Of a stretch of 64,000 nucleotides of DNA, positions 38,337-61,563 are shown one piece after another. A program made the translations under genes and the position numbers. Source of the stretch: Alphaproteobacteria bacterium. Its GTDB lineage: Bacteria; Pseudomonadota; Alphaproteobacteria; UBA2966. The first letter of the stretch is position 1. The number at the start of each line of letters is the position of its first letter. The DNA lies in the NCBI GenBank assembly GCA_964291395.2, contig OZ219856.1, positions 608,001 to 672,000 of the forward strand, read 5' to 3'. A model generated the notes under the pieces. It saw only the letters and a program-made list of their open reading frames with translations, was not told where the DNA came from and did not search any database.

Positions 38337-38358
38337 GACAGGACTCCTAGGTCGAGTC

Positions 38359-40519: not shown

Positions 40520-40546
40520 GCATGCAGCGAATTCGAGGAGAGTGTC

Positions 40547-41392: not shown

Positions 41393-41504
41393 CGGGAGTT
41401 CCGGCCTGATCGTCGTCGGCGCCCGTTCCGCGACCGCGGGTTTTCGGTACCCGCAAGAGCCGCATTTTCCTTCCATGCCTCGGTGTCTCTGCGGGTGAAC
41501 ACCT

Positions 41505-42368: not shown

Positions 42369-42388
42369 GGCGCCGAATCCGGTGACAG

Positions 42389-42403
42389 ATCGAGAATCTC
42401 GAT
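42389..42403. promoter_or_regulatory. LysR-type T-N11-A operator in the divergent promoter region
   Basis: Palindrome ATCGAGA-A-TCTCGAT just upstream of lysR, followed by an AT-rich tract. Confidence 0.6.
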
Positions 42404-42515
42404 TATTTCAATTTATTAAATTCGCTTTCCAAATCAACCTAAATGTCAAACATTACATGTCAGGACTGGTCGAAAGACGACGAAGACTTGATTTGGATGT
42501 GGTGGGGAGCGTGAC

Positions 42516-43781: not shown

Positions 43782-43846
43782 CTACTGATCCGCCGATTCC
43801 AGGACCTTTTCGCCGCGTGACCTGCGCTCCTCGCGCTTGCGCCCCG

Positions 43847-44798: not shown

Positions 44799-44843
44799 CT
44801 TTCAGTCCGGCCGTTTGATGGAGGAATCAGTCGACGATTAAGT

Positions 44844-45660: not shown

Positions 45661-45761
45661 GTGGTCGATCCGTGTCCCAGTCCACAACGGAAGCGGCCAA
45701 TCGATGTGCTGCGAAAACCGGCAAATCTAATTGCTAGCGACAGGCCGCTTTGAAGCAGGAG

Positions 45762-45871: not shown

Positions 45872-46843
45872 ATGAGGTGTGCCATGGTGGTCTTGTTTCC
45901 GGCGAGCCCGATCTGGGGACGCGATGGAGAGGCACATGTGCGGGAGCCGGACGGGCTGCGCGCGCTGCTCGAGAACCGCTCCATCGAAGTGACCCCCGCG
46001 CAGGCCTCCGATAACGCCGTCGACCAATTCCTTGCACGGGAAACACGCGTCTTCGTCCCCTGGCTGCCGGGCGCCGTGGCGGATGAGACGATCGCCGCTG
46101 CGGTCGCACTGCGGGAGCGGGGCATGGTGCCGGTCCCCCACATCGCGGCGCGGGGAATGCCGGATGCCGGCTCATTGGATCGGCTGTTGCGGCGTTTGAG
46201 GTCCGAGGCGGCGGTCGATCAGCTTCTCGTCATTGGCGGCGATGTCACATCGCCGAGGGGCCCTTTCGGTTCCGCCTTGCAGCTTCTCGAAACCGGTCTG
46301 CTGTCCGAACACCGCATCACGCGTGTCGGCATCGGCGGATATCCCGAAGGTCATCCTCACGTCTCCGACGGTGAACTACTGGACGCGTTGATTCGAAAGC
46401 AGGATCACTCTGTGCGAGCAGGACTCGACGTGTTCGTGATCACCCAGTTCGCCTTCGGTGCCGCGCCCGTGATCGATTGGCTGCGGCGGGTGCGTGCGAC
46501 CGGCGTGCGCTTGCCCGTTCACGTGGGCGTGCCCGGCCCGGCCCGCGTCGGCACCTTGATGCGCTATGCGAAGATGTGCGGTATCGGCCCCTCCGTGAGA
46601 CTGCTGTTGCGCCACGGCAAGGGGTTTGCCAGCGCGGCGCGCGTAGCGGATTCCAGCCGCATGGTCCTCGACCTCGCGGCGTACGCTGCCGCACACCCGG
46701 AGGTCGGGCTCGGTTCCCTGCACATCTATCCGTTCGGTGGGCTGAAGCGCACCGCTGGCTGGATCGAGAGCCTTGCGTCCATGTCGGAGGATCGGTGTCA
46801 GGCCCGCGCAAACGACGGATGTGGGATTCCCCAACCGTTCTAA
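45872..46843 (+). CDS. Methylenetetrahydrofolate reductase-like protein
   Basis: SIEVTP, PVPHIAAR, LVIGGD, GYPEGHP, ITQFAF, HIYPFGG motifs; start uncertain. Confidence 0.8.
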   Translation: MRCAMVVLFPASPIWGRDGEAHVREPDGLRALLENRSIEVTPAQASDNAVDQFLARETRVFVPWLPGAVADETIAAAVALRERGMVPVPHIAARGMPDAGSLDRLLRRLRSEAAVDQLLVIGGDVTSPRGPFGSALQLLETGLLSEHRITRVGIGGYPEGHPHVSDGELLDALIRKQDHSVRAGLDVFVITQFAFGAAPVIDWLRRVRATGVRLPVHVGVPGPARVGTLMRYAKMCGIGPSVRLLLRHGKGFASAARVADSSRMVLDLAAYAAAHPEVGLGSLHIYPFGGLKRTAGWIESLASMSEDRCQARANDGCGIPQPF

Positions 46844-47826
46844 AGGCCGTTGACCCGCGCCTGACGTGGTGTCACGCCGTAAAACTGCCGGTAGCACTTG
46901 GCGAAGTGCGAGGCGGAGACGAATCCGCAGGCCATCGCCACGTCGACGATGGCCATGTCGGTATGCAGCAGTAGCTTGCGCGCCCGGTCGAGACGCAGTT
47001 GCATGTAGTAGCGGTTGGGAGGGCGCCCCACGTGCCGCTGGAACAAGCGCTCCAGCTGGCGGCGGGAAACACCGACGGCCGCCGCGAGCTCCTCCTGGGA
47101 GAGCGGCTCTTCGAGATGGGTTTCCATCATGTGGATGGAATCGATCAGCTTGCGGTTGTCGACGCCGAGGCGGACGGCCAGGGGCATGCGCTGGTGGTCC
47201 TGTCCTCCGCGCACGCGGTCGAGGATGCATTCCTCGGAGACGCGGGTCGCCAACTCCTCGCCGTGCTCCGCGCGGATGAGATGGAGCATCAGGTCAAGAG
47301 CCGCCGTTCCGCCGGAACAGGTGAAGCGGTTGCCGTCGATCTCGAACAGATCGTCGGTGACTTCGATGTCCGGGTAGGTCTCCCGGAAGCTCGGAATGTT
47401 TTCCCAATGCAGGGTACAGACCTTGCCTTCGAGCAAACCGGCGCGGGCCAGCACGTGCGCGGCCGTGCATAACGCCCCGATATCGGTGCCCTGGCGGTCA
47501 AGGCGCCGCAGCCACGCGAATGTGTCCGGATTGTTGTAGACCTCGGCGCCGACTCCGCTGACCAGGATGAGAGTCGGAATCTGCCGTATCGCCATCCCGC
47601 TATCGATCTCGGATATGGCGAAATGGGGATTGACCGAGATTCCGTTGCTGGCGGTGACGGGACCCCCGTCGCCGGAAATGAGCATCCACTCGTAGAGGGC
47701 CTTTTCGCTGAGGCGGTTGGCCAGGCGCAACGGCTCGATCGCCGACGCGAAGGCGATCATCGAGAAGCTCGGGACCATGAAGAACCCGATGACCTCAGGC
47801 GTTTTTCCGGACGGTACCCCGAACAT
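46840..47826 (-). CDS. GlxA family (GATase1-AraC; GbdR/CdhR-like) transcriptional regulator
   Basis: FSMIAFASAIEPLRLANR, CTLHWEN, TCSGGTAALD, SRRQLERLF, GFVSASHFAKCYR motifs. Confidence 0.93.
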   Translation of the reverse strand: MFGVPSGKTPEVIGFFMVPSFSMIAFASAIEPLRLANRLSEKALYEWMLISGDGGPVTASNGISVNPHFAISEIDSGMAIRQIPTLILVSGVGAEVYNNPDTFAWLRRLDRQGTDIGALCTAAHVLARAGLLEGKVCTLHWENIPSFRETYPDIEVTDDLFEIDGNRFTCSGGTAALDLMLHLIRAEHGEELATRVSEECILDRVRGGQDHQRMPLAVRLGVDNRKLIDSIHMMETHLEEPLSQEELAAAVGVSRRQLERLFQRHVGRPPNRYYMQLRLDRARKLLLHTDMAIVDVAMACGFVSASHFAKCYRQFYGVTPRQARVNGL

Positions 47827-48006
47827 CGCTTCACCGGCCTGCGGATTTCACGGTCTGGCCCTCAGGGCCGCGGAAAAAGTAGAGCAAAAACAGGCGGGTG
47901 CGTAGCGAAATGTTTTCCAACGACTTGTTCCGCTCGGGGCTCGACAGCATCATCGGGATGAGACACGAATGGGTTCGGCTGTAGTCTGGAACGGTCCCTC
48001 GATCCG

Positions 48007-48924
48007 ATGCATCCCGGTGGGGGCACGGTTGTGACGGAACCGCCCGGAGGACACTTGTTCGACACGGCCTTCAGAAGATCGCTGCTTCTCCTGTGCATCG
48101 GATCGAGCGTCATGTGCGCGGCGATGGGCGTCTGGTACTGGATGACGTCGGGAACGACGTTCGCGGAACTGGCAACCGCTCGGGGCATGGACCCGGACGA
48201 GTACTGGCGGCCGGAGTTCGCCTATGCCGTGACGGTGGCGGCCTTGGGCGGCCTGCTCAATGGTTTCACCGGCTTCGGATCAAGCCTCGTCATGATTCCG
48301 TTGCTTACGTTCGTCTACGGTCCGGCGGAAGCCATCGCCGTCGGCATCGGCCTCGCCACCCTCGGATACGTATTGCTGCTTCCCGAAGCGATGCGTGACG
48401 CGGACTGGCCGGACGTCATTCCGGCGAGCCTCATGGGGTTCGTCTTTGTTCCCATCGGCATCTTCCTCCTGTTCGTCGTCGATCCCGGCGTCACCCGGCG
48501 TCTGATGGGCGCAATCGTCATTCTGGTCGCGCTCGTCATGATTCGCGGCTGGAACTACGACGGTCGCCGCAACATGCTGACAAGTGCGGCGGCCGGGTCG
48601 TTCACGGGCTTCACCACGGGTTTCTTCGGCATGGGCGCCCCGGGGGCGAGCATCTACTATCTGTCGGGACGCATCGGAGCTGCCGTTCAGCGCGCCAATA
48701 TCCTGATCGTCCTCGGGGTCATGGCGGCCCTCACCATGGTTGGGGTCACGCTCGCAGGCGGTGCGGATTGGGGCTCACTCGTTCTCGGCGTTTTGCTGAT
48801 CCCGCCGTTCGCATTGCCCACGTGGCTCGGCGCCTGGTTGTTCAGACGGACATCCAACGAGGTCTACCGCCAGGCGTGCTTGTGGCTGCTGATCGTCATG
48901 GGCCTCGCGGTGATCTTCCTGTAG
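48007..48924 (+). CDS. Sulfite exporter TauE/SafE family protein
   Basis: GLLNGFTGFGSSLVMIPLL and G...GFFGMGAP repeat motifs; multi-TM. Start uncertain. Confidence 0.8.
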   Translation: MHPGGGTVVTEPPGGHLFDTAFRRSLLLLCIGSSVMCAAMGVWYWMTSGTTFAELATARGMDPDEYWRPEFAYAVTVAALGGLLNGFTGFGSSLVMIPLLTFVYGPAEAIAVGIGLATLGYVLLLPEAMRDADWPDVIPASLMGFVFVPIGIFLLFVVDPGVTRRLMGAIVILVALVMIRGWNYDGRRNMLTSAAAGSFTGFTTGFFGMGAPGASIYYLSGRIGAAVQRANILIVLGVMAALTMVGVTLAGGADWGSLVLGVLLIPPFALPTWLGAWLFRRTSNEVYRQACLWLLIVMGLAVIFL

Positions 48925-48986
48925 CGTGGTGCGCGCCATAGCTGGCAGAATTAAGCGACCGACCTGCCGGTCGGCGTGCTCCGTTC

Positions 48987-49919
48987 ATGGCCGTCATCGT
49001 AGAAGTCATCCTGCCGATCTTCGCTATCATGCTGGCGGGTTATGTGGCTGCACGTACCCGCTTGCTCATGGAGGATGCCAGCGAAGCCATAAGCCAATTC
49101 GTCTATTACGCGGCGGGCCCGGCCCTGGCCTTCATTTCCCTGTACCGCACGTCCCTTGAGGAATTCTTCAACTGGGCGTTCCTCGGCGCGCTTGGTGGCG
49201 GCATGGCGGTGACCTTGTGCTTCAGCCTGCTGGTCGCCGTTCGCTTCTTTCCGGGAAGTCTCACCGCTTACGGCCTGCACGGCATGTGCACCATGTATCC
49301 GAGCACTGGCTACGTCGGCATTCCGCTGCTGCTCATCGCCTTTGGCGACGCGGCCCTCGTCCCGGCGATCATCGGCGCCGTCATTACCGGGGCATTCTTC
49401 CTACCCATATCCATCATCTTCGCCGAGATCGACCGGGGCAAAGGCCGATCCCGAAATCTGCTCCGGCCCTTTGCCGGCGCGTTGGCGAGCCCTCTGGTGA
49501 TAGCGGCGGTGGCCGGTCTCGGGGCCTCGGGCAGCGGCCTGCAGTTGCCGACCGCGGCCGTTACCTTCTTCGACATGCTGAGCGGTGCCTTCGGGCCGTG
49601 CGCCCTGTTCGCCGCCGGGCTCTTCATGGGTGGCCGCAAGGTTCAGGCCGACCTGAAGGAGGTGACATGGCTGGTGGTCGTGAAGCTGGCGATACAACCT
49701 CTGATAACCTGGTGGCTGGCACATCAGGTTTTCGGCCTCGACGGTATCTGGGCGGCAGCAGCCGTCATCCATGCCGCTCTTCCCACGGGCGTGCCGGTAT
49801 TCGTCGTGGCACAACGTTACGGCACTTATGTCGAACGCTCGGCCGCGGTCGTGGTTGTCTCGACCGCGATTTCGGTATTCACCCTGTCGGCGTTGCTGAT
49901 CATACTGGACGTGAAATAG
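48987..49919 (+). CDS. AEC family transporter
   Basis: ILPIFAIMLAGY, FVYYAAGPAL, GYVGIPL, KLAIQPL, ALPTG motifs. Confidence 0.88.
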   Translation: MAVIVEVILPIFAIMLAGYVAARTRLLMEDASEAISQFVYYAAGPALAFISLYRTSLEEFFNWAFLGALGGGMAVTLCFSLLVAVRFFPGSLTAYGLHGMCTMYPSTGYVGIPLLLIAFGDAALVPAIIGAVITGAFFLPISIIFAEIDRGKGRSRNLLRPFAGALASPLVIAAVAGLGASGSGLQLPTAAVTFFDMLSGAFGPCALFAAGLFMGGRKVQADLKEVTWLVVVKLAIQPLITWWLAHQVFGLDGIWAAAAVIHAALPTGVPVFVVAQRYGTYVERSAAVVVVSTAISVFTLSALLIILDVK

Positions 49920-50152
49920 CCGCATGCGCCCCAGGTGCAGTCGGGGCCGTCTGCCCGAAGGGCGGGGCGCGAAGGTCGTGTCATTGGATTTCGGTCGGCT
50001 GTACCCTCCAGACCGTTGTCATTGCCTGCGACGATTGGGCGGCGCAATCCGAATAGGGAACGTCGCGCAAGGACAAGTCCGAGGCAGAGTTGGGCTCAAG
50101 GATGCTGACGCCGCATGAGGCGGTGGAGCCCGCGTATCGGGGGAGGACGGCG

Positions 50153-52597
50153 ATGAAGTCTGAGGCGCGAGTCGTGGTGATCGGTGGCGGCGTGAACGGG
50201 GTCAGCGTCCTCTACCACCTGGCCAAGAAGGGGTGGACGGACGTCGTCCTGCTCGAGCGGACGGAGCTGACGGCGGGTTCGACTTGGCACGCGGCCGGTC
50301 TCTTGCCCCTCTTCAACATGAGCTATTCGGTCGGTCAGCTGCACCAGTATTCGGTGGAGCTCTACAAGACCCTGGAGGAAGAGACGGGCCAGGACGTGGG
50401 ATTCCACGTCAACGGCAATCTCCGCCTGGCGACCAACCGCGACCGCATGGACGAATACCGCAGCTACCAGTGCACGGCGGAGACCATCGGTGTCGACTGC
50501 CACCTCATCGGGGTCGACGAGATCAAGAAGCTCTGGCCGCTCTGCAACACGGAAGGTCTGGTGGGCGCGCTCTGGCATCCGACCGACGGACACATCGCCC
50601 CGGCCGATGTCACCATGGCCATGGCACGCGGCGCCCGTAACATGGGCGCGGAGATTCACCAGCAGACCGAAGTGACGGGAATCGAGCGCTCCGAATCGCT
50701 CGAATGGATCGTCAAGACGGTGCAAGGGAACATCCGCTGTGAGCACGTCGTGTGCGCGACCGGCAATTACGCCCGCCGGACCGCGAGCTGGGTGGGTCTC
50801 GAAATCCCCTCCGTGCCCGTCGAGCACCAGTACATCGTCACCGACGAGGTGCCCGAACTGAGGGCGTACCGCGAGGCCGGAAACGGCGAGCTGCCGGTGC
50901 TGCGCGAATCGGACGCCTCCTACTATTTCCGCGAGGAGCGGATGGGCTGGTTGCTCGGTCCCTACGAGCGCGGCGCGCCGGCCTGCTTCGTCGACGGGGT
51001 TCCTGCGACCTTCGAGAAGGATCTGTTTCCAGGCGATCTCGATCGCCTGCTGCCTCACGTGGAGGCCGCGGCCCGGCGCGTGCCCTCTTTTGAGAACGCC
51101 GGCATCAAGCAGATCATCAATGGGCCGATCCCTTATACGCCCGATGGCAATCCGATGGTCGGGCCGGCCTTCGGGCTTCCCAACTTCTGGCTCTCCGAAG
51201 GCCACAGTTTCGGGATCACCGCGGCTGGCGGCGGCGGCTGGCAGGTCGCCGAATGGATGATCGAGGGCGAGCCCAGCGTCGATATGATTGGCGTGGATCC
51301 GCGGCGATTCGGGGTGGTTTCCAAGAATTTCGCCAAGCTCAAGAACACGGAAGCCTACGAGCACGTTTTCATCATCCACTATCCGATGGAGGAACGCCCC
51401 GGGTGCCGTCCGGCAAAGGCGCCGCCCAGCTACGAGCGGATGGACCGCATGGGCGCGGTGTGGGGCCAGCGATTCGGCTGGGAGCGACCGAACTGGTTCG
51501 CACCGGAGGGGGTCGAGCGCAAGGACGCGTATTCCTTCCGCCGGTCCAATTGGTTCGAGCACGTCGGCAACGAGGTGCACGCGACCCGGGACCGGGCGGG
51601 ACTCATCGAGCTGTCGTCGTTCTCCAAGTTCGAAGCCGAAGGCCCCGGGGTGCGGGAGTGGCTGGATCGCCTCGTCGCCAACAACATCCCCAGAGGCGTC
51701 GGCCGCATTTCGCTCGCCCACGCCCTCAACCCGTCGGGCTCGATCCGGTCCGAGTTCACCATCACCCGCCTCTCCGACGGTCCCTGGGGCGAGCGTTTCT
51801 TCCTCGTGAGCGCAGGCGCCGCGCACGACTATGACCTCGACTTTCTCACGAAGCTGCTCCCCGGGGACGGCTCGGTTTATCTCAAGGATGTGACGACGCA
51901 GTACGGGGTGTTCGTTCTTGCCGGTCCGGAGGCGCGCAATATCCTGCAGCGGCTGGCGGACGCCGATGTCTCGAACGAGGCGTTTCCCTGGCTGACCGCC
52001 CGGGAGATTCCCGTCGGTTTCTGCCCCAGCGTGCGGACCTTGCGGGTGAACTTCGTGGGATCTCTGGGATGGGAGCTTCACCACCCGATCGAGTACCACA
52101 ACCACCTGTTCGACGCATTGATGGAGGCGGGTGAGGCTCAGGGCATCGGTCTCGTCGGGATGCGGGCGATGGACTCCATGCGCCTCGAGAAGTCGTATCG
52201 GCTGTGGGGAACCGACCTCAATCAGGAGAACACCATCTTCGAGGCCGGTCTCGAACGGTTCGTCCGGTTGAACAAACCGGCCTTCACGGGTCAGGAGGCG
52301 TTGATCGAGCAACGGCGGGCCGGCGTTCCCAACACTTTCTGCACGATCGAGATCGACGCAGACGACGCGGACTCGTTCGGCAACGAGCCGGTCTTCATGG
52401 ACGACGAGGTCGTCGGACGAGGAACCGCGGGCGGCTACGGCCACTACGTCAAGAAATCCCTCATGCTCGGATACGTCCGCTCCGATGCGGCGAAAGTCGG
52501 TCGCGACTGCCGAGTCCGGGTGCTCGATCAATTGCGCCCGGCGCGGATCATCTCCGACAGCCCTTACGATCCGGAAAACGCGGCCCTGCGTGCGTAA
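50153..52597 (+). CDS. Dimethylglycine dehydrogenase-like FAD oxidoreductase (GcvT family)
   Basis: VIGGGVNG, LTAGSTWHAAG, INGPIPYTPDG, GWERPNWF, SMRLEKSY, PYDPENA motifs; GGAGG RBS. Confidence 0.9.
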   Translation: MKSEARVVVIGGGVNGVSVLYHLAKKGWTDVVLLERTELTAGSTWHAAGLLPLFNMSYSVGQLHQYSVELYKTLEEETGQDVGFHVNGNLRLATNRDRMDEYRSYQCTAETIGVDCHLIGVDEIKKLWPLCNTEGLVGALWHPTDGHIAPADVTMAMARGARNMGAEIHQQTEVTGIERSESLEWIVKTVQGNIRCEHVVCATGNYARRTASWVGLEIPSVPVEHQYIVTDEVPELRAYREAGNGELPVLRESDASYYFREERMGWLLGPYERGAPACFVDGVPATFEKDLFPGDLDRLLPHVEAAARRVPSFENAGIKQIINGPIPYTPDGNPMVGPAFGLPNFWLSEGHSFGITAAGGGGWQVAEWMIEGEPSVDMIGVDPRRFGVVSKNFAKLKNTEAYEHVFIIHYPMEERPGCRPAKAPPSYERMDRMGAVWGQRFGWERPNWFAPEGVERKDAYSFRRSNWFEHVGNEVHATRDRAGLIELSSFSKFEAEGPGVREWLDRLVANNIPRGVGRISLAHALNPSGSIRSEFTITRLSDGPWGERFFLVSAGAAHDYDLDFLTKLLPGDGSVYLKDVTTQYGVFVLAGPEARNILQRLADADVSNEAFPWLTAREIPVGFCPSVRTLRVNFVGSLGWELHHPIEYHNHLFDALMEAGEAQGIGLVGMRAMDSMRLEKSYRLWGTDLNQENTIFEAGLERFVRLNKPAFTGQEALIEQRRAGVPNTFCTIEIDADDADSFGNEPVFMDDEVVGRGTAGGYGHYVKKSLMLGYVRSDAAKVGRDCRVRVLDQLRPARIISDSPYDPENAALRA

Positions 52598-52796
52598 AGC
52601 GAACCGTGCGTCGGTCATGGCTGGGGCGCTTGGGCTCAGGGCGCCATAGAGGCCGCGCCGCGGCCCGCCCCCCGGCGCGCCCACGCGTCCTGGACCGCGG
52701 TTGCAGCCCGCGCCGCGCCGCCGTAACCTTTTCGGCGATTGCGGCGGGACCGATTGCCAAGTCGTGGCCGATGGATGGAACCGGAGGGACGCATCG

Positions 52797-52970
52797 ATGA
52801 GCGACGGAAACCAGAATGGTGGCGAGGACGGCGGTGGAGAAGGCCGGGACCCTCGAGATCAATCCTTCCTGAGCCGGCACGGGTGCCTCATCACGATCGT
52901 CGTCGTCTTGCTCATCGGCGCGGCGGCGGGTCTGTGGGGATTCATCTCATGGCTCGAACGCGGGAATTGA
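52797..52970 (+). CDS. Small single-pass membrane protein (57 aa)
   Basis: GGAGGG RBS; acidic/Gly N-terminus, then TM helix GCLITIVVVLLIGAAAGLWGFISW. Confidence 0.55.
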   Translation: MSDGNQNGGEDGGGEGRDPRDQSFLSRHGCLITIVVVLLIGAAAGLWGFISWLERGN

Positions 52971-52998
52971 TCTTGGCCAAACGGTCTCCGTTTCCGGC

Positions 52999-54042
52999 GT
53001 GAAGGTATCCGTCCGCACGCGCGGCGAGTCGTTCGAATTCGATTGCGCCGAGGGGGAGAAGATCCTCCATGCCGGCCTTCGTGCCGGTATCGGTCTCCCC
53101 TACGAGTGCGGCAGCGGCACCTGTGGAACCTGCAAGGCCGAGGTGGGCAAGGGCGAGATCGACGAGGGCTGGCTCGACGCGCCGGGCCGGGCCTACGTCA
53201 AATCCGAAAAATCGGAGTTCCTCATGTGCCAGGCCACGGCGCTCGGCGACTGCGCCATCGGCGTGCGCGCCAACGTCGCACGACTGGCCGGCGATATCCC
53301 GGTACCCGAGGCGATGACGGGGCGCATCACGAAAGTCGAAGGACTCACCCACGACGTTTGCCGCGTCGCGATCACGATCGACGGTCCGGTTTCCTTCAAC
53401 GCGGGCCAGTTCATGCTCGTCGGCACCGCGGCCGTGGAGGGCCAGCGTGCCTACTCGATGGCCGACTATCGAACCTCGACGGACCGACTCGCGTTCGTCG
53501 TCAAGCAGGTCCCGGAGGGCGGATTCACCGACTGGCTGTTCGCCGAGGACCGGACCGGAGCCGAGCTCAGTCTCTTCGGGCCGCTCGGCGTCGCGACCTA
53601 TGCACCTTCGTTGCCCAACGACCTCGTCTGCATCGCCGGCGGCTCGGGTCTCGCGCCGATGCTGTCGATACTCGACCACGCGATCGAGGCGGGACATTTC
53701 GAGGCTTACGAAGGGGATTTGTTCTTCGGTGTCCGCACGGAACGCGACATCTACCTTCTCGACCACCTCAAGGCCTACGCGGGCCATGATCCGGAGAGGC
53801 TGAGGGTTACGGTCGTCCTGTCGGATGCCGCGCCGACGGCGGAACTGGTGGCGGCACATCCGGAACTCCGGTTCGACGAGGGCTTCGTGCACGAAGCCGC
53901 GATGCGCCGCATGACCGGACGCTGGGACGGCGTGATGGCCTACCTCGCGGGCCCGCCGCCGATGGTCGACGCGACGCTGCGGGCCCTGGTCATGGAGGCG
54001 AGGTTGACTCCGTCGGCGATCCGTTACGACAAGTTCAGTTGA
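52999..54042 (+). CDS. 2Fe-2S/FAD/NAD oxygenase reductase (MsmD-like)
   Basis: EKILHAGL...LPYECGSGTCGTC...LMCQ ferredoxin domain, RAYSMA, IAGGSGLAP, YLAGPPPMV, YDKF. Confidence 0.88.
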   Translation: MKVSVRTRGESFEFDCAEGEKILHAGLRAGIGLPYECGSGTCGTCKAEVGKGEIDEGWLDAPGRAYVKSEKSEFLMCQATALGDCAIGVRANVARLAGDIPVPEAMTGRITKVEGLTHDVCRVAITIDGPVSFNAGQFMLVGTAAVEGQRAYSMADYRTSTDRLAFVVKQVPEGGFTDWLFAEDRTGAELSLFGPLGVATYAPSLPNDLVCIAGGSGLAPMLSILDHAIEAGHFEAYEGDLFFGVRTERDIYLLDHLKAYAGHDPERLRVTVVLSDAAPTAELVAAHPELRFDEGFVHEAAMRRMTGRWDGVMAYLAGPPPMVDATLRALVMEARLTPSAIRYDKFS

Positions 54043-54127
54043 GCCTTGCCGGAGGCGGCGGCCCGTTGTGAAGAGCAGGCCGGGCCGCTAGGTTCCGGCG
54101 GTGAACCAGGGCGCGGAGGTGATCCAC

Positions 54128-54457
54128 ATGAGCTGGCAACGGGTTTGCGCCGTCGACGATGTCGACGAAGAAGAACTGCACGAGTTCGAGATCGGCGATA
54201 TCACCATCCTCGTTGCCAACGCCGGCGGGGAATTCTTCGCCTATCCCCCGTTTTGTCCGCACCAGGAGACGCCGCTCTCCCTCGGCATGATCGACGGCGA
54301 TACGCTCACCTGCATCAAGCACCTCTGGCAGTGGAACATGAAGACCGGCGAGATGCGGGAGAATGCCGAGAGTCCGCTGCTCCTCTATGAGGTCAAGGTC
54401 GAGGACGGCGCCGTGCTCGTGAATCTGGAGAAAGAGCTCAGGTACGACTACCAATGA
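54128..54457 (+). CDS. Rieske ferredoxin (MsmC-like)
   Basis: PPFCPHQETPL...LTCIKHLWQWN...EL.YDY; GGAGGT RBS. Confidence 0.88.
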   Translation: MSWQRVCAVDDVDEEELHEFEIGDITILVANAGGEFFAYPPFCPHQETPLSLGMIDGDTLTCIKHLWQWNMKTGEMRENAESPLLLYEVKVEDGAVLVNLEKELRYDYQ

Positions 54458-54482
54458 CACGCGGGCCCGCAGAATGGTGCCG

Positions 54483-54554
54483 GCACCCCGCCCAACCCGG
54501 CGGGGCGAAGCGGGACAAGCCGAGACTAGGCGAGACTAGGCGAAAAAGGTTGTG
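54483..54554 (+). repeat. 72-bp intergenic repeat element, copy 2
   Basis: Contains 10-nt units cgggacaagc/cgagactagg/cgagactagg/cgaaaaaggt; inverted copy at 34304-34375. Confidence 0.85.
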
Positions 54555-54664
54555 TCGCCGTTCACCGCGATTGCGGCATTCTCCAGAATGTCGTATCGTT
54601 GCGCGTTAGGTCAGAATTATTGACCTAAGGATCGAGGAAACGCCTTACATTCCGGGGATTTAGC

Positions 54665-55900
54665 ATGGCGCGTACAGCTGAAGAACACCTCTCTCCGCCC
54701 AGTGTTCAGAGTGACGCCTACGTCCACTCGTCCGTCTATACCGATCCGGACATCTTCGCGGAGGAAGAAGAGAAGATCCTGCGCCGCACTTGGAAATTCG
54801 TCTGCCACGTCAGCGAAGTCGCGGCGGTCGGCGACTTCCGAGCCCACCAGTGGACCGGCGTACCGCTGGTCACCGTGCGCGGCAACGATGACGGGATCCG
54901 CACCTTCGTGAACACCTGCTCGCACCGCGGCGCCAAGATCGTGCGCGAGCCGGCCGGCAACATGAAGCACATGACGTGCTTCTTCCATATGTGGGAATAC
55001 GACCTGTTCGGCAACTGCACCTATCAACCCCGCGGGGAAGCCTACGAGGAGTTGGGCCCGGCCAGGGAAGACCTCTCGCTTCGCGAGATTCGCACGGACG
55101 TTTTCGCCGGCCTCGTGTTCATCAACTTCGACGGCAACGCGGAATCGTTGCGCGACTACATCGGCGAGGCGGGGGAGCCCTTCGAGAAGATCTTCAACAA
55201 CCACGAGCTGGAGGTCTTCCACTACAACCAGACCCACGTGCGCGGGAACTGGAAGGCCTGGTATCTCACCAATTGCGACCTCTATCACGAATGGTCCCAC
55301 CTGGTGAACCGTACCACCAGCGTGTTGACTCCGGGCTATCACGACCGCCCCTGGCGGATACAGCGGAACGGCCACGGGTACAGCGCGCAGCGGATCGACG
55401 GCAGTCCGTTCCAGGTCGAGTACAAGAAATACAAGAGCTGGAAGAACCGCAACGACCTCGTGTTCGAGGGTCTGGCGCCGGGCGAGTTCCGGGTTACCGA
55501 TATTTTCCCGAATCTGTCGGTCTTCTTCCGCGCCACCTGCATCCGCCTCAACCATTCGACGCCGATCGCACCGGGTCACACGGTCATGGAGGAGCGCGGG
55601 CTCGGCATCAAGGGCGAGTCGAAGGAGGATCGCAGAATCCGCTCGAAGCAGTTCGTCCAGATCTGGGGGCCGTTCAGCCGCAACGCATCGGAGGACTGCG
55701 CCTACGTCGAGGCGACGCATGCCTGCCAGGAGAACGGAGCGAATCCCTACGACCTGATGTCCCGCGTGGAGTACTTCGACGACGGGACGCACGAGCGCAC
55801 CCACAGCGACACCTACCTGCGTCACTTCTATGGAGAGTGGGGAAGGCTCATGGGACGGCCCGCCAACAATCCCAGGAACTTCATGGCGGCGGCCGAGTAG
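54665..55900 (+). CDS. Rieske oxygenase alpha subunit, methanesulfonate monooxygenase MsmA-like (short Rieske spacer)
   Basis: CSH-x17-CFFH; EVFHY, TNCDLYHEWSH, RGLGIK, IWGPFSRN..ED, RHFYGEWG..M.R...NP...AAE, recalled as MsmA-type motifs. Confidence 0.8.
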   Translation: MARTAEEHLSPPSVQSDAYVHSSVYTDPDIFAEEEEKILRRTWKFVCHVSEVAAVGDFRAHQWTGVPLVTVRGNDDGIRTFVNTCSHRGAKIVREPAGNMKHMTCFFHMWEYDLFGNCTYQPRGEAYEELGPAREDLSLREIRTDVFAGLVFINFDGNAESLRDYIGEAGEPFEKIFNNHELEVFHYNQTHVRGNWKAWYLTNCDLYHEWSHLVNRTTSVLTPGYHDRPWRIQRNGHGYSAQRIDGSPFQVEYKKYKSWKNRNDLVFEGLAPGEFRVTDIFPNLSVFFRATCIRLNHSTPIAPGHTVMEERGLGIKGESKEDRRIRSKQFVQIWGPFSRNASEDCAYVEATHACQENGANPYDLMSRVEYFDDGTHERTHSDTYLRHFYGEWGRLMGRPANNPRNFMAAAE

Positions 55901-55958
55901 CGCTTTGAATTCCGGAGCGGGTCCCGAAGGCCCGCTCCGTCGGATTCGACTGACTGCG

Positions 55959-56417
55959 ATGACGATCACCGACGATCAGATCAGGAATTTGATCCATAAA
56001 TCGTGCCGGCTTCTCGATGCCGAGGAGTTCGACGACTACCTCGATCTCTATACGGAGGAGTTCGAGTACAGGATCACCAACTACTCCCGCGAAATCCGCA
56101 AGGAGCAGGAGTGGATGGACGTCAGCCGGGGCGAAATGAAGGGGCTGCTGGCCAACGTGCCCCTGCACTTTCGTTTGCTCGGCAGCTTCATGCGTCACGC
56201 CACGGTCTACGAGATCGAGCGCGACGGCGCCGATACCGCCAAGGCGCTCACGTACGTGACCATCTATTACACGACACCCGAGGGCGCGACGAGCGTCTGG
56301 GCGGTCGGTCGCTACCACGACGTGATCGACGTCTCCGGAGATACGCCGCTGATCGCCGATCGGAACATGAAGCTCGAGACCCGCGAGGTGGGCATCGGCA
56401 CCCATCTGCCGATGTAG
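55959..56417 (+). CDS. Oxygenase beta subunit, MsmB-like
   Basis: LI.KSC.LLD...F..Y....YS.EIRK...W...RHATVY...AVGRYHD.ID.SG..P...LETR..GIG.H.P. Confidence 0.78.
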   Translation: MTITDDQIRNLIHKSCRLLDAEEFDDYLDLYTEEFEYRITNYSREIRKEQEWMDVSRGEMKGLLANVPLHFRLLGSFMRHATVYEIERDGADTAKALTYVTIYYTTPEGATSVWAVGRYHDVIDVSGDTPLIADRNMKLETREVGIGTHLPM

Positions 56418-56537
56418 ACGCCGGCGCGCAGGCGCTTCAGGATGACGTCGCGCTCAGGCTCGGCCGCCGCTCGTAGGCCAAGGCTGCCGTGCCGCCGTCA
56501 TGCCGGCGGCAGTTGAATTCAGTGGGAGGGTGATCCG

Positions 56538-56969
56538 GTGAAACCGACCGAACGCATGGAGATGGAGTGGGAGCTGCGGCGCCTCAACGACGACTACGTC
56601 CGCTACGCCGACAGGCAGGATTTCGATTCGTTCGTCACCCTGTTCACGGGGGATGCCGTGCTCGAGATCGGCGGCGTCGAGCGCCATGGCCACGACGCCA
56701 TCAAGGGTCATTTCGCCGATCGCGAACAGATGGTGACTCGCCACTTCTGCACCAATTACTGGTACGAGCCGGTCGACAAGGACACGGCCCGGGGCGAGGT
56801 CTACCTCGCCGTCTATCGCTGTGCGGGTCCGCACACCGAGGCCGACGGCCCGATCCCCTATGACCGGCCCGACTGGATCGGTGAGTATCACGACACGTAC
56901 GTGCGCACGGCCGACGGCTGGAAGTTCTCCGAACGCCGCCTCAGGGTCCGCTTCGAGAAGGTGCCGTAG
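56538..56969 (+). CDS. SnoaL-like / NTF2 family protein
   Basis: Y.RYAD......LFTGDA...TRHFCTN...GEYHDTYVRTADGWKFSER. Confidence 0.85.
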   Translation: MKPTERMEMEWELRRLNDDYVRYADRQDFDSFVTLFTGDAVLEIGGVERHGHDAIKGHFADREQMVTRHFCTNYWYEPVDKDTARGEVYLAVYRCAGPHTEADGPIPYDRPDWIGEYHDTYVRTADGWKFSERRLRVRFEKVP

Positions 56970-57024
56970 GGATCGGGCTCGGCGGCCCGCCTCCCTTCTC
57001 CGGTGCTCCGGCGGTCGTGCCGGC

Positions 57025-58344
57025 CTAGCGCACCGCCTGCTTGGGGATCTCCTTCTTCGGGTCCTTGAAGGGCACCGGAACGACTTCCGCATCCACGGGC
57101 CCGTCTTCGGCCGGCAGCACCGCCTTCAGCCGGGTGCCGGTCCTGGCGTAGGCGGCGGGCAGGGTCGCGAGGGCGATGTTGGTGTTGTGGGTCGGCGACC
57201 AGAAGGCGCTGGTGATGTAACCGATCTCCTGGCCCGAGCGGCTGGTCACGTACCAGAAATCCTCGTTGTACCAGGTGATGGGGCTGCCCCCGATCTTCAG
57301 GCCGGCGAGCTTCTGCTTCACGCCCGTCTTCTTGATCTTCTGAAGCGCCGACTTGCCGATGAAGTCGTCCTTCGAGAAATCGACCTGCCAGCCGAGGCCG
57401 ACCTCGAACGGGTTGGTCTCGATGTCCATGTCCTGGCCGTAGGACAGGATGCCGGCTTCCAGGCGGCGGATGTGGCTCGGGGCGATGACCCGCAGGTTGT
57501 ACTGCTCGCCCGCTCTCTTGATCGCGTGCCACATCTCGTCGGCATGGCGTGTGGCATCGCGCAGGTAGATCTCGTAGCCGACCTCGCCGGAGAACCCCGT
57601 TCGTGAGATCACGACCTTCGACCGACCGAGTCTGGCGTGCATCAGGCCGTAATAGGGGATGTTGAGGACCTTGCGCCCGAACAGCTTGGTCATCAGCTTG
57701 ACGGACTTGGGACCCTGGATCTGCACCGGCGAGACGTCGATCTCCCTGATCGTCACGTCGTGGCCCGAAAAGGCGTTGACGCCCTGCGCCCACAGCAAAA
57801 CGTCCGAATCCGAGATGCTGAACCAGAATTCGTCCTCCGCGACCCGCAGCAGCACCGGGTCGTTGATGATGCCGCCCTCGTGATTGCAGAGGATGACGTA
57901 GCGACACATGTTCGTCGGCAGCTTCTTGTGGACGTCGCGGGTGATCAGCAGGTTCACGAACTCCGCGGCGTCCGGCCCCTTGACCTGTATCTGCCGCTCC
58001 ACCGCGACGTTCCACATCGTCACGTGCCTGGTGAGGTATTCGTACTCCTTCATCAAGCCGCCCTGCATCATGCTGACGTAGGCCCGCGGATGATACATGT
58101 GGTTGTAGACGGTGTAGGCCCAGCAGCCTTCCTGATGGGAGAGGTGCCAGTAGGGGCTCTTGCGAGCCCGGGTCGAGATCAGCATGCGGGCTTCGCTGTT
58201 GCCGCTCTGGCGCAGGTTGACGGGAACGCTGCGCTTCTTGATATCGATGACCGGCGGACGCTTGACCTTGGGTTTGCGGGCGGTCTTCGGTGCCCTGACG
58301 GTCTTGGCTGTGGAAGATTCGAGAAGCATGGATCTTGGTGCCAT
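57025..58344 (-). CDS. GcvT-family aminomethyltransferase / THF-dependent demethylase (DmdA-like clade)
   Basis: TVYNHMYHP, WNVAVERQIQVKGPDA, NDPVLLRV, WFSISDSD, SRTGFSGEVGYEIY, RLEAGILSYG, PFKDP motifs. Confidence 0.85.
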   Translation of the reverse strand: MAPRSMLLESSTAKTVRAPKTARKPKVKRPPVIDIKKRSVPVNLRQSGNSEARMLISTRARKSPYWHLSHQEGCWAYTVYNHMYHPRAYVSMMQGGLMKEYEYLTRHVTMWNVAVERQIQVKGPDAAEFVNLLITRDVHKKLPTNMCRYVILCNHEGGIINDPVLLRVAEDEFWFSISDSDVLLWAQGVNAFSGHDVTIREIDVSPVQIQGPKSVKLMTKLFGRKVLNIPYYGLMHARLGRSKVVISRTGFSGEVGYEIYLRDATRHADEMWHAIKRAGEQYNLRVIAPSHIRRLEAGILSYGQDMDIETNPFEVGLGWQVDFSKDDFIGKSALQKIKKTGVKQKLAGLKIGGSPITWYNEDFWYVTSRSGQEIGYITSAFWSPTHNTNIALATLPAAYARTGTRLKAVLPAEDGPVDAEVVPVPFKDPKKEIPKQAVR

Positions 58345-58537
58345 GGCGACGACCCCTGTGAACGACGGACATTCTGGACTCGGAAGGGACGCGCGACCGC
58401 GCGTCCCTTTCCTGTCGTTCGAAATATCCGCTGCCCCGGTGCCGGCGTCTGTTCCCGGCGCGACACGCGGGGCGCCAGGAACAGCACAAACGCGACGAGT
58501 CCGGCAGGAGCGATCGGCTCGAGCGGGGACCCGCTGC

Positions 58538-58588
58538 GCAGGGGGCGGAATTCGCCGACGGACGTGCGTCCCGCCCGCCGTCGCGCTA
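58538..58588. repeat. 51-bp structured direct repeat, copy 1 (includes the vapC stop codon)
   Basis: gcagggggcggaattcgccgacggacgtgcgtcccgcccgccgtcgcgcta; 49/51 identical to 59484-59534. Confidence 0.9.
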
Positions 58589-59002
58589 CGCGCCGCCGGG
58601 TGCATCCAGCCCGACGGCCTGTGCCGCAGCGGCCAGCGTCCGGTCCAGGGTCGCAAGGGGCAGCCGCATGCGCAGCGCGAGCTCGAGATACATGGCATCG
58701 TAGACGGAGAGGCTGTGCTCGCCGGCGAGAGCGAGCGCCGGACCCCATGCGCGGGATGCGGATACGGGGTCGATCTCGATGGGCAGCGCTTCCAGACTGG
58801 CGCACACGGCAGGCCACTCGTCCGCGCGAAGGCGGCCGCGTTTGGTAGCTGCGAGCAGCACACTGCCGACCTCGACCGGCCAGAGGGAGGGGACGAAGGC
58901 GCGGTCGTCGATGAGCGAGTCCCGCAAGCGGGCCGTCGCCTCGGTCGCCTCGTCGGGGAACACCCATGCCATGGCGACCGAGCAGTCGAGGACGAAGGGC
59001 AT
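58586..59002 (-). CDS. vapC: VapC PIN-domain toxin
   Basis: FVLDCSVAMAW.F.DE, VPSLW..EV, YDAMYLELA, LATLD motifs. Confidence 0.9.
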   Translation of the reverse strand: MPFVLDCSVAMAWVFPDEATEATARLRDSLIDDRAFVPSLWPVEVGSVLLAATKRGRLRADEWPAVCASLEALPIEIDPVSASRAWGPALALAGEHSLSVYDAMYLELALRMRLPLATLDRTLAAAAQAVGLDAPGGA

Positions 59003-59253
59003 CAGTACCTGCGCGCTTCCTCGACGATGCGGCGCACCGACAGTCCTCCGAGGCTGTGGGTCTCCTGGAACGCTCTCAGGGTGTCGATCGCGCTCCGCAC
59101 CTTGGCGGCATCGCGCTGCCGGAAGGGAATGAGTTCGGCCACCGGGCGGCTGTGCCTGGTGATGACGAAGCGTTCGCCCGCCTCGACGCGCTGGAGCAGC
59201 TTGGGCAAATGGGTCTTGGCCTCGAATGCGCCGATCTCGGACACGGCATGCAC
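59002..59253 (-). CDS. Phd/YefM family antitoxin
   Basis: IGAFEAKTHLPKLLQRVEAGERFVITRHSRPVAEL; translationally coupled to vapC. Confidence 0.92.
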   Translation of the reverse strand: MHAVSEIGAFEAKTHLPKLLQRVEAGERFVITRHSRPVAELIPFRQRDAAKVRSAIDTLRAFQETHSLGGLSVRRIVEEARRY

Positions 59254-59276
59254 CTCCTGAATAACGTTCCGTTCAC

Positions 59277-59293
59277 ACCAGTCTCAGACTGGT
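59277..59293. promoter_or_regulatory. Palindromic TA operator
   Basis: ACCAGTCT-C-AGACTGGT perfect inverted repeat upstream of the antitoxin. Confidence 0.65.
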
Positions 59294-59460
59294 CCAAAGA
59301 GGTGTCGCGGTCAAGTGACCAGCTTGCCCATTCAGAGATGGTGGCGGGCCGTCATTCCTGTCGGCTGAATTGCAGGGTCGTCTTCAGTAGCCAGGCAAAC
59401 TGGCAGGGTTTGACGTCGATCTCGTCGGCGCGGCGGCGCTTCGCGTGGCTGTCGTAGAAT

Positions 59461-59534
59461 GGGCGGAATTCGCCGACGGACGTGCAGGGGGCGGAATTCG
59501 CCGACGGACGTGCGTCCCGCCCGTCGTCACGCTA
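59461..59534. repeat. 51-bp direct repeat copy 2 (59484-59534) plus 25-bp tandem partial copy (59461-59485)
   Basis: gggcggaattcgccgacggacgtgc is repeated in tandem, followed by the rest of the full unit. Confidence 0.9.
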
Positions 59535-59966: not shown

Positions 59967-60111
59967 GCGGCGCCGACGGGTCCGGGCCTCGCCGGATCGG
60001 CGTTTGGATTTCCGGGGAGGTTCGAGTAAAACCGGAACCGTTCCGGCGGAACGGCGGCGGCGATGTCGACGCCGCCGTCGCGGGCAGAGTAGCGAACCGG
60101 AGGGACCACGC

Positions 60112-61563
60112 ATGAGCACGCAATCCGACGACGCCCATCCCGGCTTCAGCCGCGGCGGGGGCCAGGCCTACAGGGGCTACGAGAAGACCGGGGTCCTGCC
60201 CGAGGATGCCGAGCTGACGCATACCGATCCGGGAACGCCCATGGGCGCTCTCATGCGCCGCTTCTGGCAGCCGGTGTGCCTGTCCGAGGAGTTGACCGAC
60301 GTGCCGCGCGCGATTCGCATCCTGGGCGAGGACCTCGTGGCGTTCCGCGACAAGTCGGGGCGCGTCGGCGTTCTCCACCGGCACTGCGCCCACCGCGGCG
60401 CCTCGCTGGAGTACGGGATCATCCAGGAGACCGGCATCCGGTGCTGCTACCACGGCTTTCATTGGAACGTGGACGGGACTCTCCTCGATGTGCCCGGCGA
60501 GCCGGACGGCGGCGAGCGCATGTCCGGGATCGTCGGCCAGGGCGCCTATCCCGCGTTCGAGCGCTACGGCATGGTGTTCGCCTACATGGGCGACTACGAG
60601 GAGATGCCGAGGTTCCCGGACTGGGAGTTCTTCCGCACCTACGGGGACCTGGAGTTCGCCTCCTACTCCAACATCTACCCGTGCAACTGGCTTCAGGTGT
60701 TCGACAACATCCCCGACCAGATGCACACCTCCCAGCTCCACAGCCCGCACATGCGCGTGATCGGCGACGACGACGACGGGAGCTATCCGGCGACCGCCTT
60801 CAATCCGGTCTTCGCGCAGATTCCGGTCATGGAATACGCCTCGGTCCGCGACGACACGGCGATGATCTTCAGCGCCGGGCGCCGGGTGGGCCGGGACAGG
60901 GTCTGGGTGCGTCTCAACGACGTCATCCTGCCGAACCTCACTCTCCATCCCTATACCGCCGAGGATGGGCGCGAAGCCCGCTACTTCCATCGCGTCTACA
61001 TGGCGCGCTGGTACGTCCCCGTCGACGACGAGAACAGCATCGTCTTCGGCATCCGCATGTTCGGCGAGTCGGTCGACCCCTTCGGCGTGGGCGACAAGTC
61101 CAAGTGCGGATACGACATGGCCGACTTCCTCGACGGGCAGACCGGCGCGCGGCCCCGCGAGGTGGCGCAGCGCCTGCCCGGCGACTGGGATGCCGTGACC
61201 AGCCAGCGGCGGATCGCCCGGCACGCGATGGAGAACCCGACCAAGGAGGACGTCGGGGTCTACATGAACCGGAAGAACCTGCGCCAGGCCGTTCGCGGCG
61301 AGAACCCGTACATGGCGCAGGAGGCCGTTCACGCGCGCGCCAACGCCGGTCGGCGGAACTACGTCTACACCAACAACACGGTGCTGGACATCCCGGTGCA
61401 GGACGGCCGGGACGACGGCGAGCTCGTTCGCGAGGTCTGCCGGAAGGTGCTGGAGATCGCGGTCGCGGGCGACGCCCACGAGGGCGCCGAGCGCGACGCC
61501 TTCATCGAAGGCGCGCTGAGGGACTACGAGCGGTCCTTCGCCGCCGCCGCGGCGGCGGAGTAG
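60112..61563 (+). CDS. Rieske non-heme iron oxygenase alpha (phthalate 4,5-dioxygenase-like family)
   Basis: PGTPMG.LMRRFWQPV, HCAHRGASL...CCYHG, CNWLQV.DN..D.MH....H. Confidence 0.88.
   Translation: MSTQSDDAHPGFSRGGGQAYRGYEKTGVLPEDAELTHTDPGTPMGALMRRFWQPVCLSEELTDVPRAIRILGEDLVAFRDKSGRVGVLHRHCAHRGASLEYGIIQETGIRCCYHGFHWNVDGTLLDVPGEPDGGERMSGIVGQGAYPAFERYGMVFAYMGDYEEMPRFPDWEFFRTYGDLEFASYSNIYPCNWLQVFDNIPDQMHTSQLHSPHMRVIGDDDDGSYPATAFNPVFAQIPVMEYASVRDDTAMIFSAGRRVGRDRVWVRLNDVILPNLTLHPYTAEDGREARYFHRVYMARWYVPVDDENSIVFGIRMFGESVDPFGVGDKSKCGYDMADFLDGQTGARPREVAQRLPGDWDAVTSQRRIARHAMENPTKEDVGVYMNRKNLRQAVRGENPYMAQEAVHARANAGRRNYVYTNNTVLDIPVQDGRDDGELVREVCRKVLEIAVAGDAHEGAERDAFIEGALRDYERSFAAAAAAE

Follow-up and report, generated by a model that had tools for sequence, protein, structure and literature searches.

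A short-spacer Rieske oxygenase system of the MsmA family among folate-linked demethylase genes of a sponge-associated alphaproteobacterium

The closest described system to the one analyzed here is the methanesulfonate monooxygenase MsmABCD of Methylosulfonomonas methylovora, Marinosulfonomonas and Filomicrobium, whose genes are arranged in the order A-B-C-D. Passages of Henriques and De Marco (2015; PMC4433239) state that every strain proven to grow on methanesulfonate has a 26-residue spacer (x26) in the Rieske motif of its alpha subunit, and treat CXH-X26-CXXH as the signature of MsmA sensu stricto. The same passages give spacers of 16–18 residues for oxygenases other than methanesulfonate monooxygenase, and name 'MsmA' annotations with n = 17 in Methylibium, Methyloversatilis, Ralstonia and Thiobacillus whose function is without evidence. 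Here we analyze a system composed of the same four parts, a reductase, a Rieske ferredoxin and the alpha and beta subunits of an oxygenase, encoded at 52999-56417 of a 64,000-nucleotide stretch of alphaproteobacterial DNA (contig OZ219856.1, positions 608,001 to 672,000; hereafter the window). The genes encode a conserved, working Rieske oxygenase with three components, which belongs to the MsmA family and is not a methanesulfonate monooxygenase. Given the genes that are conserved around it, we tentatively favor, as the leading possibility and short of a probable one, a role in the O2-dependent demethylation of a small methylated carboxylate or sulfonate osmolyte within a GbdR-type betaine route.

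Family placement of the oxygenase and its paralogues

Six intact genes occupy positions 52797-56969, all on the + strand. Bit scores are to Pfam models.

52797-52970, +, small membrane open reading frame (ORF), 57 residues, with a C-terminal membrane helix and no Pfam match
52999-54042, +, reductase of the MsmD/BenC type, 347 residues (Fer2 54.4, FAD_binding_6 30.4, NAD_binding_1 58.9 bits)
54101-54457, +, [2Fe-2S] Rieske ferredoxin of the MsmC type, 118 residues (Rieske 61.7 bits)
54665-55900, +, oxygenase alpha subunit, 411 residues (Rieske 51.9 bits; Ring_hydroxyl_A 33.2 bits, cut-off 24.9)
55953-56417, +, oxygenase beta subunit, 154 residues (SnoaL_4 54.1 bits; Ring_hydroxyl_B 35.7 bits, cut-off 27)
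56538-56969, +, species-specific SnoaL_4 protein resembling a beta subunit, 143 residues (SnoaL_4 72.4 bits)

The translations agree with the initial annotation, which had described co-oriented reductase, ferredoxin, alpha and beta genes in the order D-C-A-B, flanked by the membrane ORF and the SnoaL protein, and had read the Rieske motif CSHRGAKIVREPAGNMKHMTCFFH (CSH-x17-CFFH) and the iron-proximal motif WYLTNCDLYHEWSH in the alpha subunit. Five of the six proteins exceed Pfam gathering scores, the small ORF being the exception, and the reductase begins with a plant-type [2Fe-2S] domain, after which come its FAD and NAD domains. None of the six reaches an NCBIfam cut-off: the reductase scores 159.6 bits against BenC (cut-off 430), the alpha subunit 116 bits against its best model AndAc (cut-off 750), and the SnoaL_4 protein 32.5 bits against the AndAd small subunit (cut-off 230). 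The GbcA model reaches 80.5 bits on the alpha subunit (cut-off 670) and covers its N-terminal half only, which places it outside GbcA/BmoA. Because all NCBIfam models stay below their cut-offs, no name can be transferred from them.

The ratio of nonsynonymous to synonymous substitution rates (dN/dS), computed against three orthologous loci, lies between 0.06 and 0.36 for five genes of known families and the conserved part of the small ORF. The alpha gene is the most constrained (0.08-0.10), beside values of 0.06-0.15 for beta, 0.11-0.36 for the reductase, and 0.06-0.16 for the upstream gene of a flavoprotein resembling dimethylglycine dehydrogenase (DMGDH); the small ORF has 0.18-0.30 over its conserved C-terminal part. 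By this measure the genes of the system are real, functional and under purifying selection.

In its parts and in its expected chemistry, in which a methyl carbon is hydroxylated and formaldehyde then leaves spontaneously, the window system resembles MsmABCD. It differs in its spacer (x17 against x26), in its gene order, in an alpha subunit that is 35-40% identical to the x26 proteins and falls in another clade, in six clade-specific substitutions, and in having neither an msmEFGH-type transporter nor a sulfite oxidase nearby. Three features of MsmA sensu stricto, namely the x26 motif, a place in the x26 clade and the msmABCD order with a divergent msmEFGH, are thus lacking in this system.

A word-indexed search with the alpha subunit (E up to 1e-10) found 135 homologues, of which 120 were listed and 119 of these carry the Rieske motif. 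The spacer is x17 in 112 of the 119, x18 in four, x19 in one and x26 in two; x17 is therefore the ordinary Rieske spacing of the family and x26 the derived state. The short spacer, which the initial annotation had singled out as a special feature, loses that standing, and short-spacer relatives have been in print since 2015, because the cited passages of PMC4433239 name such n = 17 proteins. Compared by description only, those proteins belong to the same broad group and share its ordinary spacer. Many of the homologues of the alpha subunit bear the name 'methanesulfonate monooxygenase large subunit' from automatic annotation at the Joint Genome Institute (JGI). No paper giving a function to a short-spacer member was found in the main texts searched outside subscription journals. 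A paper on SAR116 mentions msmA only beside dmsABC and has no bearing on this case.

In a tree built from 105 alpha sequences (by a quick IQ-TREE run, with SH-aLRT branch support only), the window protein and the x26 proteins fall together in a 93-row clade (SH-aLRT 99, stem length 1.76), inside the MsmA-related group to which the initial annotation had assigned it. Within that group the x26 rows cluster in a small clade (SH-aLRT 98), whose sister group consists of two further paralogues from the same genome. The window protein belongs to an 8-row clade (SH-aLRT 100) whose sister is another paralogue of its own genome, and this clade and its sister are nested in a 72-row clade (SH-aLRT 96) separate from the x26 clade. 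An alignment of 42 family sequences has 39 invariant columns. Among 1.84 billion cluster representatives, 56 match the alpha subunit at E up to 1e-30, and the window clade makes up one stand-alone 50%-identity cluster whose nearest other representative is 44% identical. On this placement, the alpha subunit is a member of a broad MsmA-related alpha3beta3 family and stands outside MsmA sensu stricto.

At E up to 1e-10 the source genome (4.16 Mb in 3 contigs, 98.1% complete, 9% contamination) matches the alpha subunit at 26 places, and eight of these are full-length MsmA-like genes. The beta subunit has eight paralogues in it, and orthologues of the window beta subunit in other loci are 88-92% identical. 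The genome is very rich in Rieske oxygenases altogether; beside these 26 alpha matches it has 28 to the LigXa-like protein encoded at 60004-61563 of the window. One of the alpha paralogues, at C1:1613090-1614316, has the x26 spacer. It lies in a canonical msm-type locus (C1:1603000-1616000) with genes for TauE, an OpuAC-type ATP-binding cassette (ABC) system, a sulfite-oxidase-type molybdenum enzyme, a tripartite ATP-independent periplasmic (TRAP) transporter, alpha, beta and a Rieske ferredoxin; a reductase gene is missing from this locus, and DUF1302 genes come next. A search with the x26 paralogue returned 1207 homologues at E up to 1e-30. Of the 119 that were newly listed, 118 share the x26 spacer, at 68-93% identity, and this tight clade has the look of an orthologue set.

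Both genes occur in each of the five congeners, the x26 gene at 92-96% identity and the window-type gene at 86-94%. With a threshold of E 1e-150, no window-type gene turned up in the genomes sampled from other genera of the family (7), from the order (10) or from the class (18); one Methyloligellaceae assembly (L006) has a 77% identical alpha copy. That two such paralogues sit side by side in six genomes argues for different jobs, and with the canonical x26 paralogue present a substrate other than methanesulfonate is the natural reading. The automatic JGI names of the homologues and the identical component set would suggest a second methanesulfonate monooxygenase isoenzyme. Such an isoenzyme is highly improbable, as the alpha subunit falls outside the x26 clade, the canonical paralogue is kept in all six genomes, and six positions conserved in the family are fixed differently in the window clade. 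The initial proposal of the same architecture with a different substrate is thus borne out in family placement, identity and paralogy.

These results bear on annotation more widely. Hundreds of short-spacer proteins are labeled methanesulfonate monooxygenase by automatic pipelines, and since the members of at least one of these clades are a separate paralogue that coexists with the real enzyme, counts of 'msmA' in metagenomes that disregard spacer and clade are too high.

Active site and structural relatives of the alpha subunit

The Rieske center of the alpha subunit is formed by C85/H87 and C105/H108, and its predicted iron ligands H208, H212 and D344 align with H210, H215 and D356 of terephthalate dioxygenase (TPADO, TphA2A3). 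These seven window residues are invariant in the family alignments, and by their Cys2His2 and 2-His-1-carboxylate pattern the protein is classed as the catalytic subunit of an alpha-beta-type Rieske non-heme iron oxygenase. An AlphaFold2 model of the alpha subunit (predicted local distance difference test score 93.2) has as its top structural matches TPADO and salicylate 5-hydroxylase NagGH, with template modeling scores of 0.76-0.84, and the same two enzymes are found by sequence (E 2e-29) and, at full length, by profile (E 9e-55). Searches of solved structures with the alpha subunit returned no entry titled methanesulfonate monooxygenase. The window system shares with TPADO and NagGH the alpha3beta3 Rieske oxygenase fold and the positions of the iron ligands, but the two ligand histidines are spaced H-x4-H in TPADO and H-x3-H in the window. 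TPADO works with one reductase and no distinct ferredoxin. GbcAB/BmoAB, CntAB and Stc2 can be likened to the proposed enzyme in that they use O2 to attack an N-methyl or N-alkyl substituent of a betaine; they differ in belonging to another Rieske subfamily that has no beta subunit or separate ferredoxin, and the Stc2 and CntA structures match the model less well than TPADO does.

When 13 sequences of the window clade were set against 82 other members of the family and 14 x26 proteins, six changes emerged, L155F, D157G, E201L, D296N, G338S and D381S, at positions that are at least 85% conserved in the others and fixed differently in all or in 11 of the 13 window-clade sequences. Four of the six remove an acidic residue. 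Taken together, the six fixed changes may be read as signs of a changed active site and a shift in function. Position 201 lies seven residues ahead of the first iron ligand, His208, and matches the Glu of the TPADO stretch W-K...E-N...D-x-Y-H. Position 296, an Asn in the window, aligns with TPADO Arg309 in both single-sequence and profile alignments. Passages of PMC9060491 describe Arg309 as the conserved carboxylate anchor of its subfamily, so that this anchor is replaced at the aligned position of the window protein; the TPADO chain index and the numbering of that paper differ by an offset of +2, worked out from the iron ligands. Arg294 is invariant in the family. Because it lies two residues before position 296 on the same predicted strand (292-302), its side chain should point the same way, and Arg294 is likely to act as the anion anchor of the substrate. 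The residue mapping is based on a sequence alignment to TPADO at 25-26% identity.

The structural matches to TPADO and NagGH raise the alternative of an oxygenase, ring-hydroxylating or otherwise, for an aromatic, heteroaromatic or other carboxylate, perhaps an N-methylated one such as trigonelline or homarine, with the folate genes as mere neighbors. In the same genome the sister paralogue lies in surroundings of an aromatic type, among Amidohydro_2 and VanA-like genes, and genes for a LigXa-like Rieske protein, an alpha/beta hydrolase and a flavin reductase lie downstream of the system in the window and in four of the five orthologous loci (L001-L004). We consider this alternative decidedly unlikely, given the low identity to TPADO, the Asn at the position of its anchor, a locus with no ring-cleavage or diol-dehydrogenase gene, and a regulator that is GbdR-like and not of the IclR, LysR or AraC-XylS kinds of aromatic pathways.

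Conserved neighborhood and proposed reaction

The genes that surround the system on both sides are the following.

45872-46843, +, MTHFR/MetF-like protein, a distant relative of MTHFR (Pfam MTHFR, E 8e-8)
46840-47826, -, GbdR-like AraC/DJ-1 regulator, divergent to the operon (Pfam DJ-1_PfpI and HTH_18)
48007-48924, +, TauE/TSUP-family permease (TauE 92.6 bits), a species-specific insertion
48987-49919, +, AEC-family transporter (Mem_trans 122.6 bits), a species-specific insertion
50090-52597, +, DMGDH-like flavoprotein (Pfam DAO, FAO_M, GCV_T and GCV_T_C)
57025-58176, -, DmdA-like methyltransferase of the GcvT family, dependent on tetrahydrofolate (THF), convergent with the operon (NCBIfam DmdA 323.4 bits)

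The DMGDH-like protein matches human DMGDH (5l46) over its full length (E 1.4e-197), and the DmdA-like protein matches Pelagibacter DmdA (3tfh) at E 4.5e-66, its NCBIfam score lying below the cut-off of 410. The regulator scores 382.8 bits against NCBIfam GbdR (cut-off 480). We compared this neighborhood with five orthologous loci (L001-L005) from assemblies titled uncultured Alphaproteobacteria. The alpha, beta and convergent DmdA-like genes are adjacent in all six loci, window included. DMGDH-like gene, small ORF, reductase and ferredoxin precede alpha in four loci, and the L003 record begins inside the reductase. The DMGDH-like orthologues are 88-91% identical. Orthologues of the MetF-like protein (74-76% identical) occupy the same place in L001, L002 and a further locus, L093, where the GbdR-like regulator is likewise found (86-91%). 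Even the small ORF is conserved over its C-terminal 34-40 residues (76-87% identical), always just 5' of the reductase, in L001, L002 and L005, and it is found in L093 as well.

Contrasted with these partners, the TauE, AEC transporter and SnoaL genes are found only in the window and are absent from L001-L005, and a search of 77 loci and of the genome itself revealed neither a counterpart nor a paralogue of the SnoaL_4 protein. At the place of TauE and AEC, L001 has an L-serine dehydratase gene (sdaA) and a cupin gene, and L002 and L093 have nothing. Judged from this alignment of loci, the region is an insertion hot spot, beyond which the DMGDH-like gene retains its own upstream region. A block of about 90 nucleotides upstream of the DMGDH-like gene (within 49900-50089) is conserved in the window, L001, L002 and L093, and a separate conserved block lies beside gbdR (within 47827-48006) in the window and L001; both could be regulator-binding or promoter regions. 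The C1 and sulfur context proposed at the outset therefore divides: the DMGDH-like, MetF-like and DmdA-like genes are conserved, but the sulfur part is weak, since TauE and SnoaL are confined to this species at a hot spot.

According to passages of PMC12478193, MetF2 and SdaA (L-serine ammonia-lyase) of R. pomeroyi belong to the most strongly induced proteins when carnitine, choline or glycine betaine is supplied. By analogy, the MetF-like protein of the window would oxidize methyl-THF to methylene-THF. The conserved context and this induction together look like demethylation of an N-osmolyte that feeds the folate pool, and not like sulfur metabolism. The oxygenase genes are probably co-transcribed with the adjacent DMGDH-like gene under the GbdR-like regulator. 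A regulator of the GbdR type reportedly controls GbcAB. DMGDH-like proteins have five paralogues in the genome. At C3:1194658-1198478 (L092) a second DMGDH-like gene (46% identical) is again paired with a DmdA-like gene (44% identical), next to genes for acyl-CoA dehydrogenases, a thiolase, a hydroxyacyl-CoA dehydrogenase/hydratase and a CoA-transferase; the recurring pair suggests a demethylase module.

In the proposed reaction, electrons would pass from NAD(P)H through the Fer2-FAD reductase and the Rieske ferredoxin to the alpha3beta3 oxygenase, which would hydroxylate a methyl group of a small N-methylated, or possibly S-methylated, osmolyte whose carboxylate or sulfonate is held by Arg294. 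The hydroxymethyl intermediate would collapse to formaldehyde and the demethylated product, and the remaining methyl groups would enter the folate pool by way of flavin-dependent and THF-dependent demethylases. Foremost among the candidate substrates are glycine betaine and dimethylglycine, or a compound closely resembling them. Nowhere in the genome does a GbcA-type glycine betaine monooxygenase reach the cut-off (best 156 bits, cut-off 670), and no member of the MttB/MtgB family was found in this 98.1% complete assembly. If a betaine or another methylated osmolyte is indeed the substrate, the family gains a second reaction class and sponge symbionts an O2-dependent route for host-derived methylated compounds.

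Several observations weigh against such a demethylase. A sarcosine oxidase beta subunit scores above cut-off elsewhere in the genome with a BHMT-like S-methyltransferase near it, so that glycine betaine breakdown does not need this enzyme and glycine betaine is a candidate and not a necessity. No betaine transporter of the BCCT or OpuAC kind is conserved at the locus. The window clade has lost four acidic residues with no obvious gain for a cationic trimethylammonium group, and the mapping of its residues onto TPADO stands on the low identity given above. In L004 (genome G001) alpha and beta are split from the block of gbdR, DMGDH-like, reductase and ferredoxin genes by 2.4 Mb, and the Methyloligellaceae homologue sits among cobalamin biosynthesis and envelope genes that give no hint of function. 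The sister paralogue (L079) lies among amidohydrolase, VanA-like and CoA-ligase genes, and one betaproteobacterial clade adjoins DmpFG; these two contexts make a carboxylate substrate, aromatic or other, a possibility.

Another alternative is a monooxygenase that desulfonates a compound other than methanesulfonate, for instance a C2-C4 alkanesulfonate, isethionate, or N-methyltaurine or taurine betaine; it would hydroxylate the sulfonate-bearing carbon, and the released sulfite would leave through TauE. Membership of the same family as MsmA, the TauE gene at the head of the gene string in this species and the invariant Arg294 as a possible anion anchor all fit this scheme, as do several other short-spacer clades that adjoin TauE or SsuA/NMT1-type ABC transporters. 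TauE, however, is missing from the five orthologous loci and sits at the insertion hot spot; unlike the canonical locus of the same genome, the locus has no sulfite dehydrogenase or sulfonate ABC transporter; and folate-linked demethylases, placed under a GbdR-like regulator, make up its conserved partners. The desulfonating enzyme is accordingly unlikely. The absence of an adjacent msmEFGH transporter, noted initially, holds up: no SsuA/NMT1-type ABC transporter is encoded between 38 and 64 kb of the window, where only fragments of an ABC ATPase and an SBP_bac_5 protein lie, at 43.8-45.7 kb, which look like decayed transporter genes.

Beyond the window clade, with its GbdR and DMGDH-like context, short-spacer clades adjoin TRAP, tripartite tricarboxylate (TTT) or SsuA/NMT1-type ABC transporters, TauE and IclR regulators. 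The inspected betaproteobacterial members have IclR, TRAP and DmpFG neighbors, and members from Betaproteobacteria and Roseovarius adjoin DmpF/DmpG-type aldolase-dehydrogenase pairs. The transporter neighbors point to several kinds of small anionic substrates, and with the DmpFG contexts they leave room for both the sulfonate and the aromatic or carboxylate alternatives. Eight loci from Betaproteobacteria, Roseovarius and Ectothiorhodospiraceae (L011, L012, L014, L015, L025, L039, L041 and L063) share an arrangement of IclR, alpha, beta, TRAP DctPQM, DmpF/DmpG-type, reductase and ferredoxin genes; no ring-cleavage gene was seen in their annotated clusters, and the arrangement may represent a pathway for a small aliphatic acid.

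Electron supply, the wider locus and habitat

Separate genes for a Fer2-FAD-NAD reductase and a Rieske ferredoxin make this a three-component electron-transfer arrangement, which we take to be 'class III' in Batie's scheme. A tblastn search of the genome with the window reductase found no match other than itself (E<0.01). Each congener likewise has one orthologue; one of them also shows a weak partial match of 30%, and the orthologue of another is split by the start of its record. With eight alpha/beta pairs and one reductase of its type, this reductase is suggested to serve them all, and the eight MsmA-like oxygenases probably share it, as judged from this reductase type only. The closest paralogue of the ferredoxin is that of the canonical msm-type locus (48.6% identical). 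The self-contained four-gene unit of the initial annotation is therefore doubtful, the reductase being sole of its kind and, in one congener, encoded apart from alpha and beta. In that congener, G001, the separated block runs MetF-like, gbdR, DMGDH-like, integrase-type transposase, small ORF, reductase and ferredoxin, followed by purine genes. The sulfatase and TTT genes that now stand beside alpha and beta in L004 follow a rearrangement and were set aside as context. One reductase apparently serving eight oxygenases offers a testable case of shared electron supply in a Rieske-rich genome.

These elements can be joined into a more specific proposal, in which an MsmA-family oxygenase was recruited in one sponge-associated genus as a non-orthologous N-demethylase of glycine betaine or a sponge-derived analogue of it, standing in for the GbcAB type, on a GbdR/DMGDH/MetF2-like folate route, with a reductase-ferredoxin hub for all eight MsmA-like oxygenases including the true methanesulfonate monooxygenase. 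As a whole we regard this proposal as speculative and unlikely.

The host bacterium is a sponge symbiont known only from metagenome assemblies. Half or more of the sampled words of the stretch are present in fourteen sequencing runs. Most of these runs, from at least six studies, are labeled sponge metagenome, and the one with the highest share may be the source sample. Contigs of four RNA-library runs from two studies contain near-identical pieces of the alpha, ferredoxin and DmdA-like genes and of the small ORF and reductase start. We do not count these contigs as proof of expression or co-transcription, because DNA may be present in the libraries and the contigs show neither transcripts nor strand; stretches that they leave uncovered carry no meaning. 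An Rfam scan of 40000-64000 (E up to 0.1) gave no match, and scans of 47500-59500 gave no signal, with 1 promoter-like site (1.9 expected) and 5 terminator-like sites (7.4 expected).

Further differences among the loci lie outside the system. RidA follows in four of the six loci. The DmdA-like gene and RidA, which abut in L001, are separated in the window by genes for a Phd/YefM antitoxin and a PIN-domain protein (58586-59253, -), apparently a toxin-antitoxin pair. The block 37296-45700 is absent from L001, where UPF0182 abuts the MetF-like gene. It holds genes for a luciferase-like monooxygenase, an enoyl-CoA hydratase fragment, a short-chain dehydrogenase/reductase and a LysR regulator, together with two seen only in the locus of this species: a betaine-aldehyde dehydrogenase above its cut-off and a gamma-butyrobetaine/TMAEP-dioxygenase-like gene below both of its cut-offs. 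L005, whose assembly (genome G003) is titled UBA2966, has a second alpha-beta pair in tandem (5179-8762); its alpha subunit is 67% identical to that of the window, and D-serine-dehydratase-like, DUF3291 and amidohydrolase genes follow the pair.

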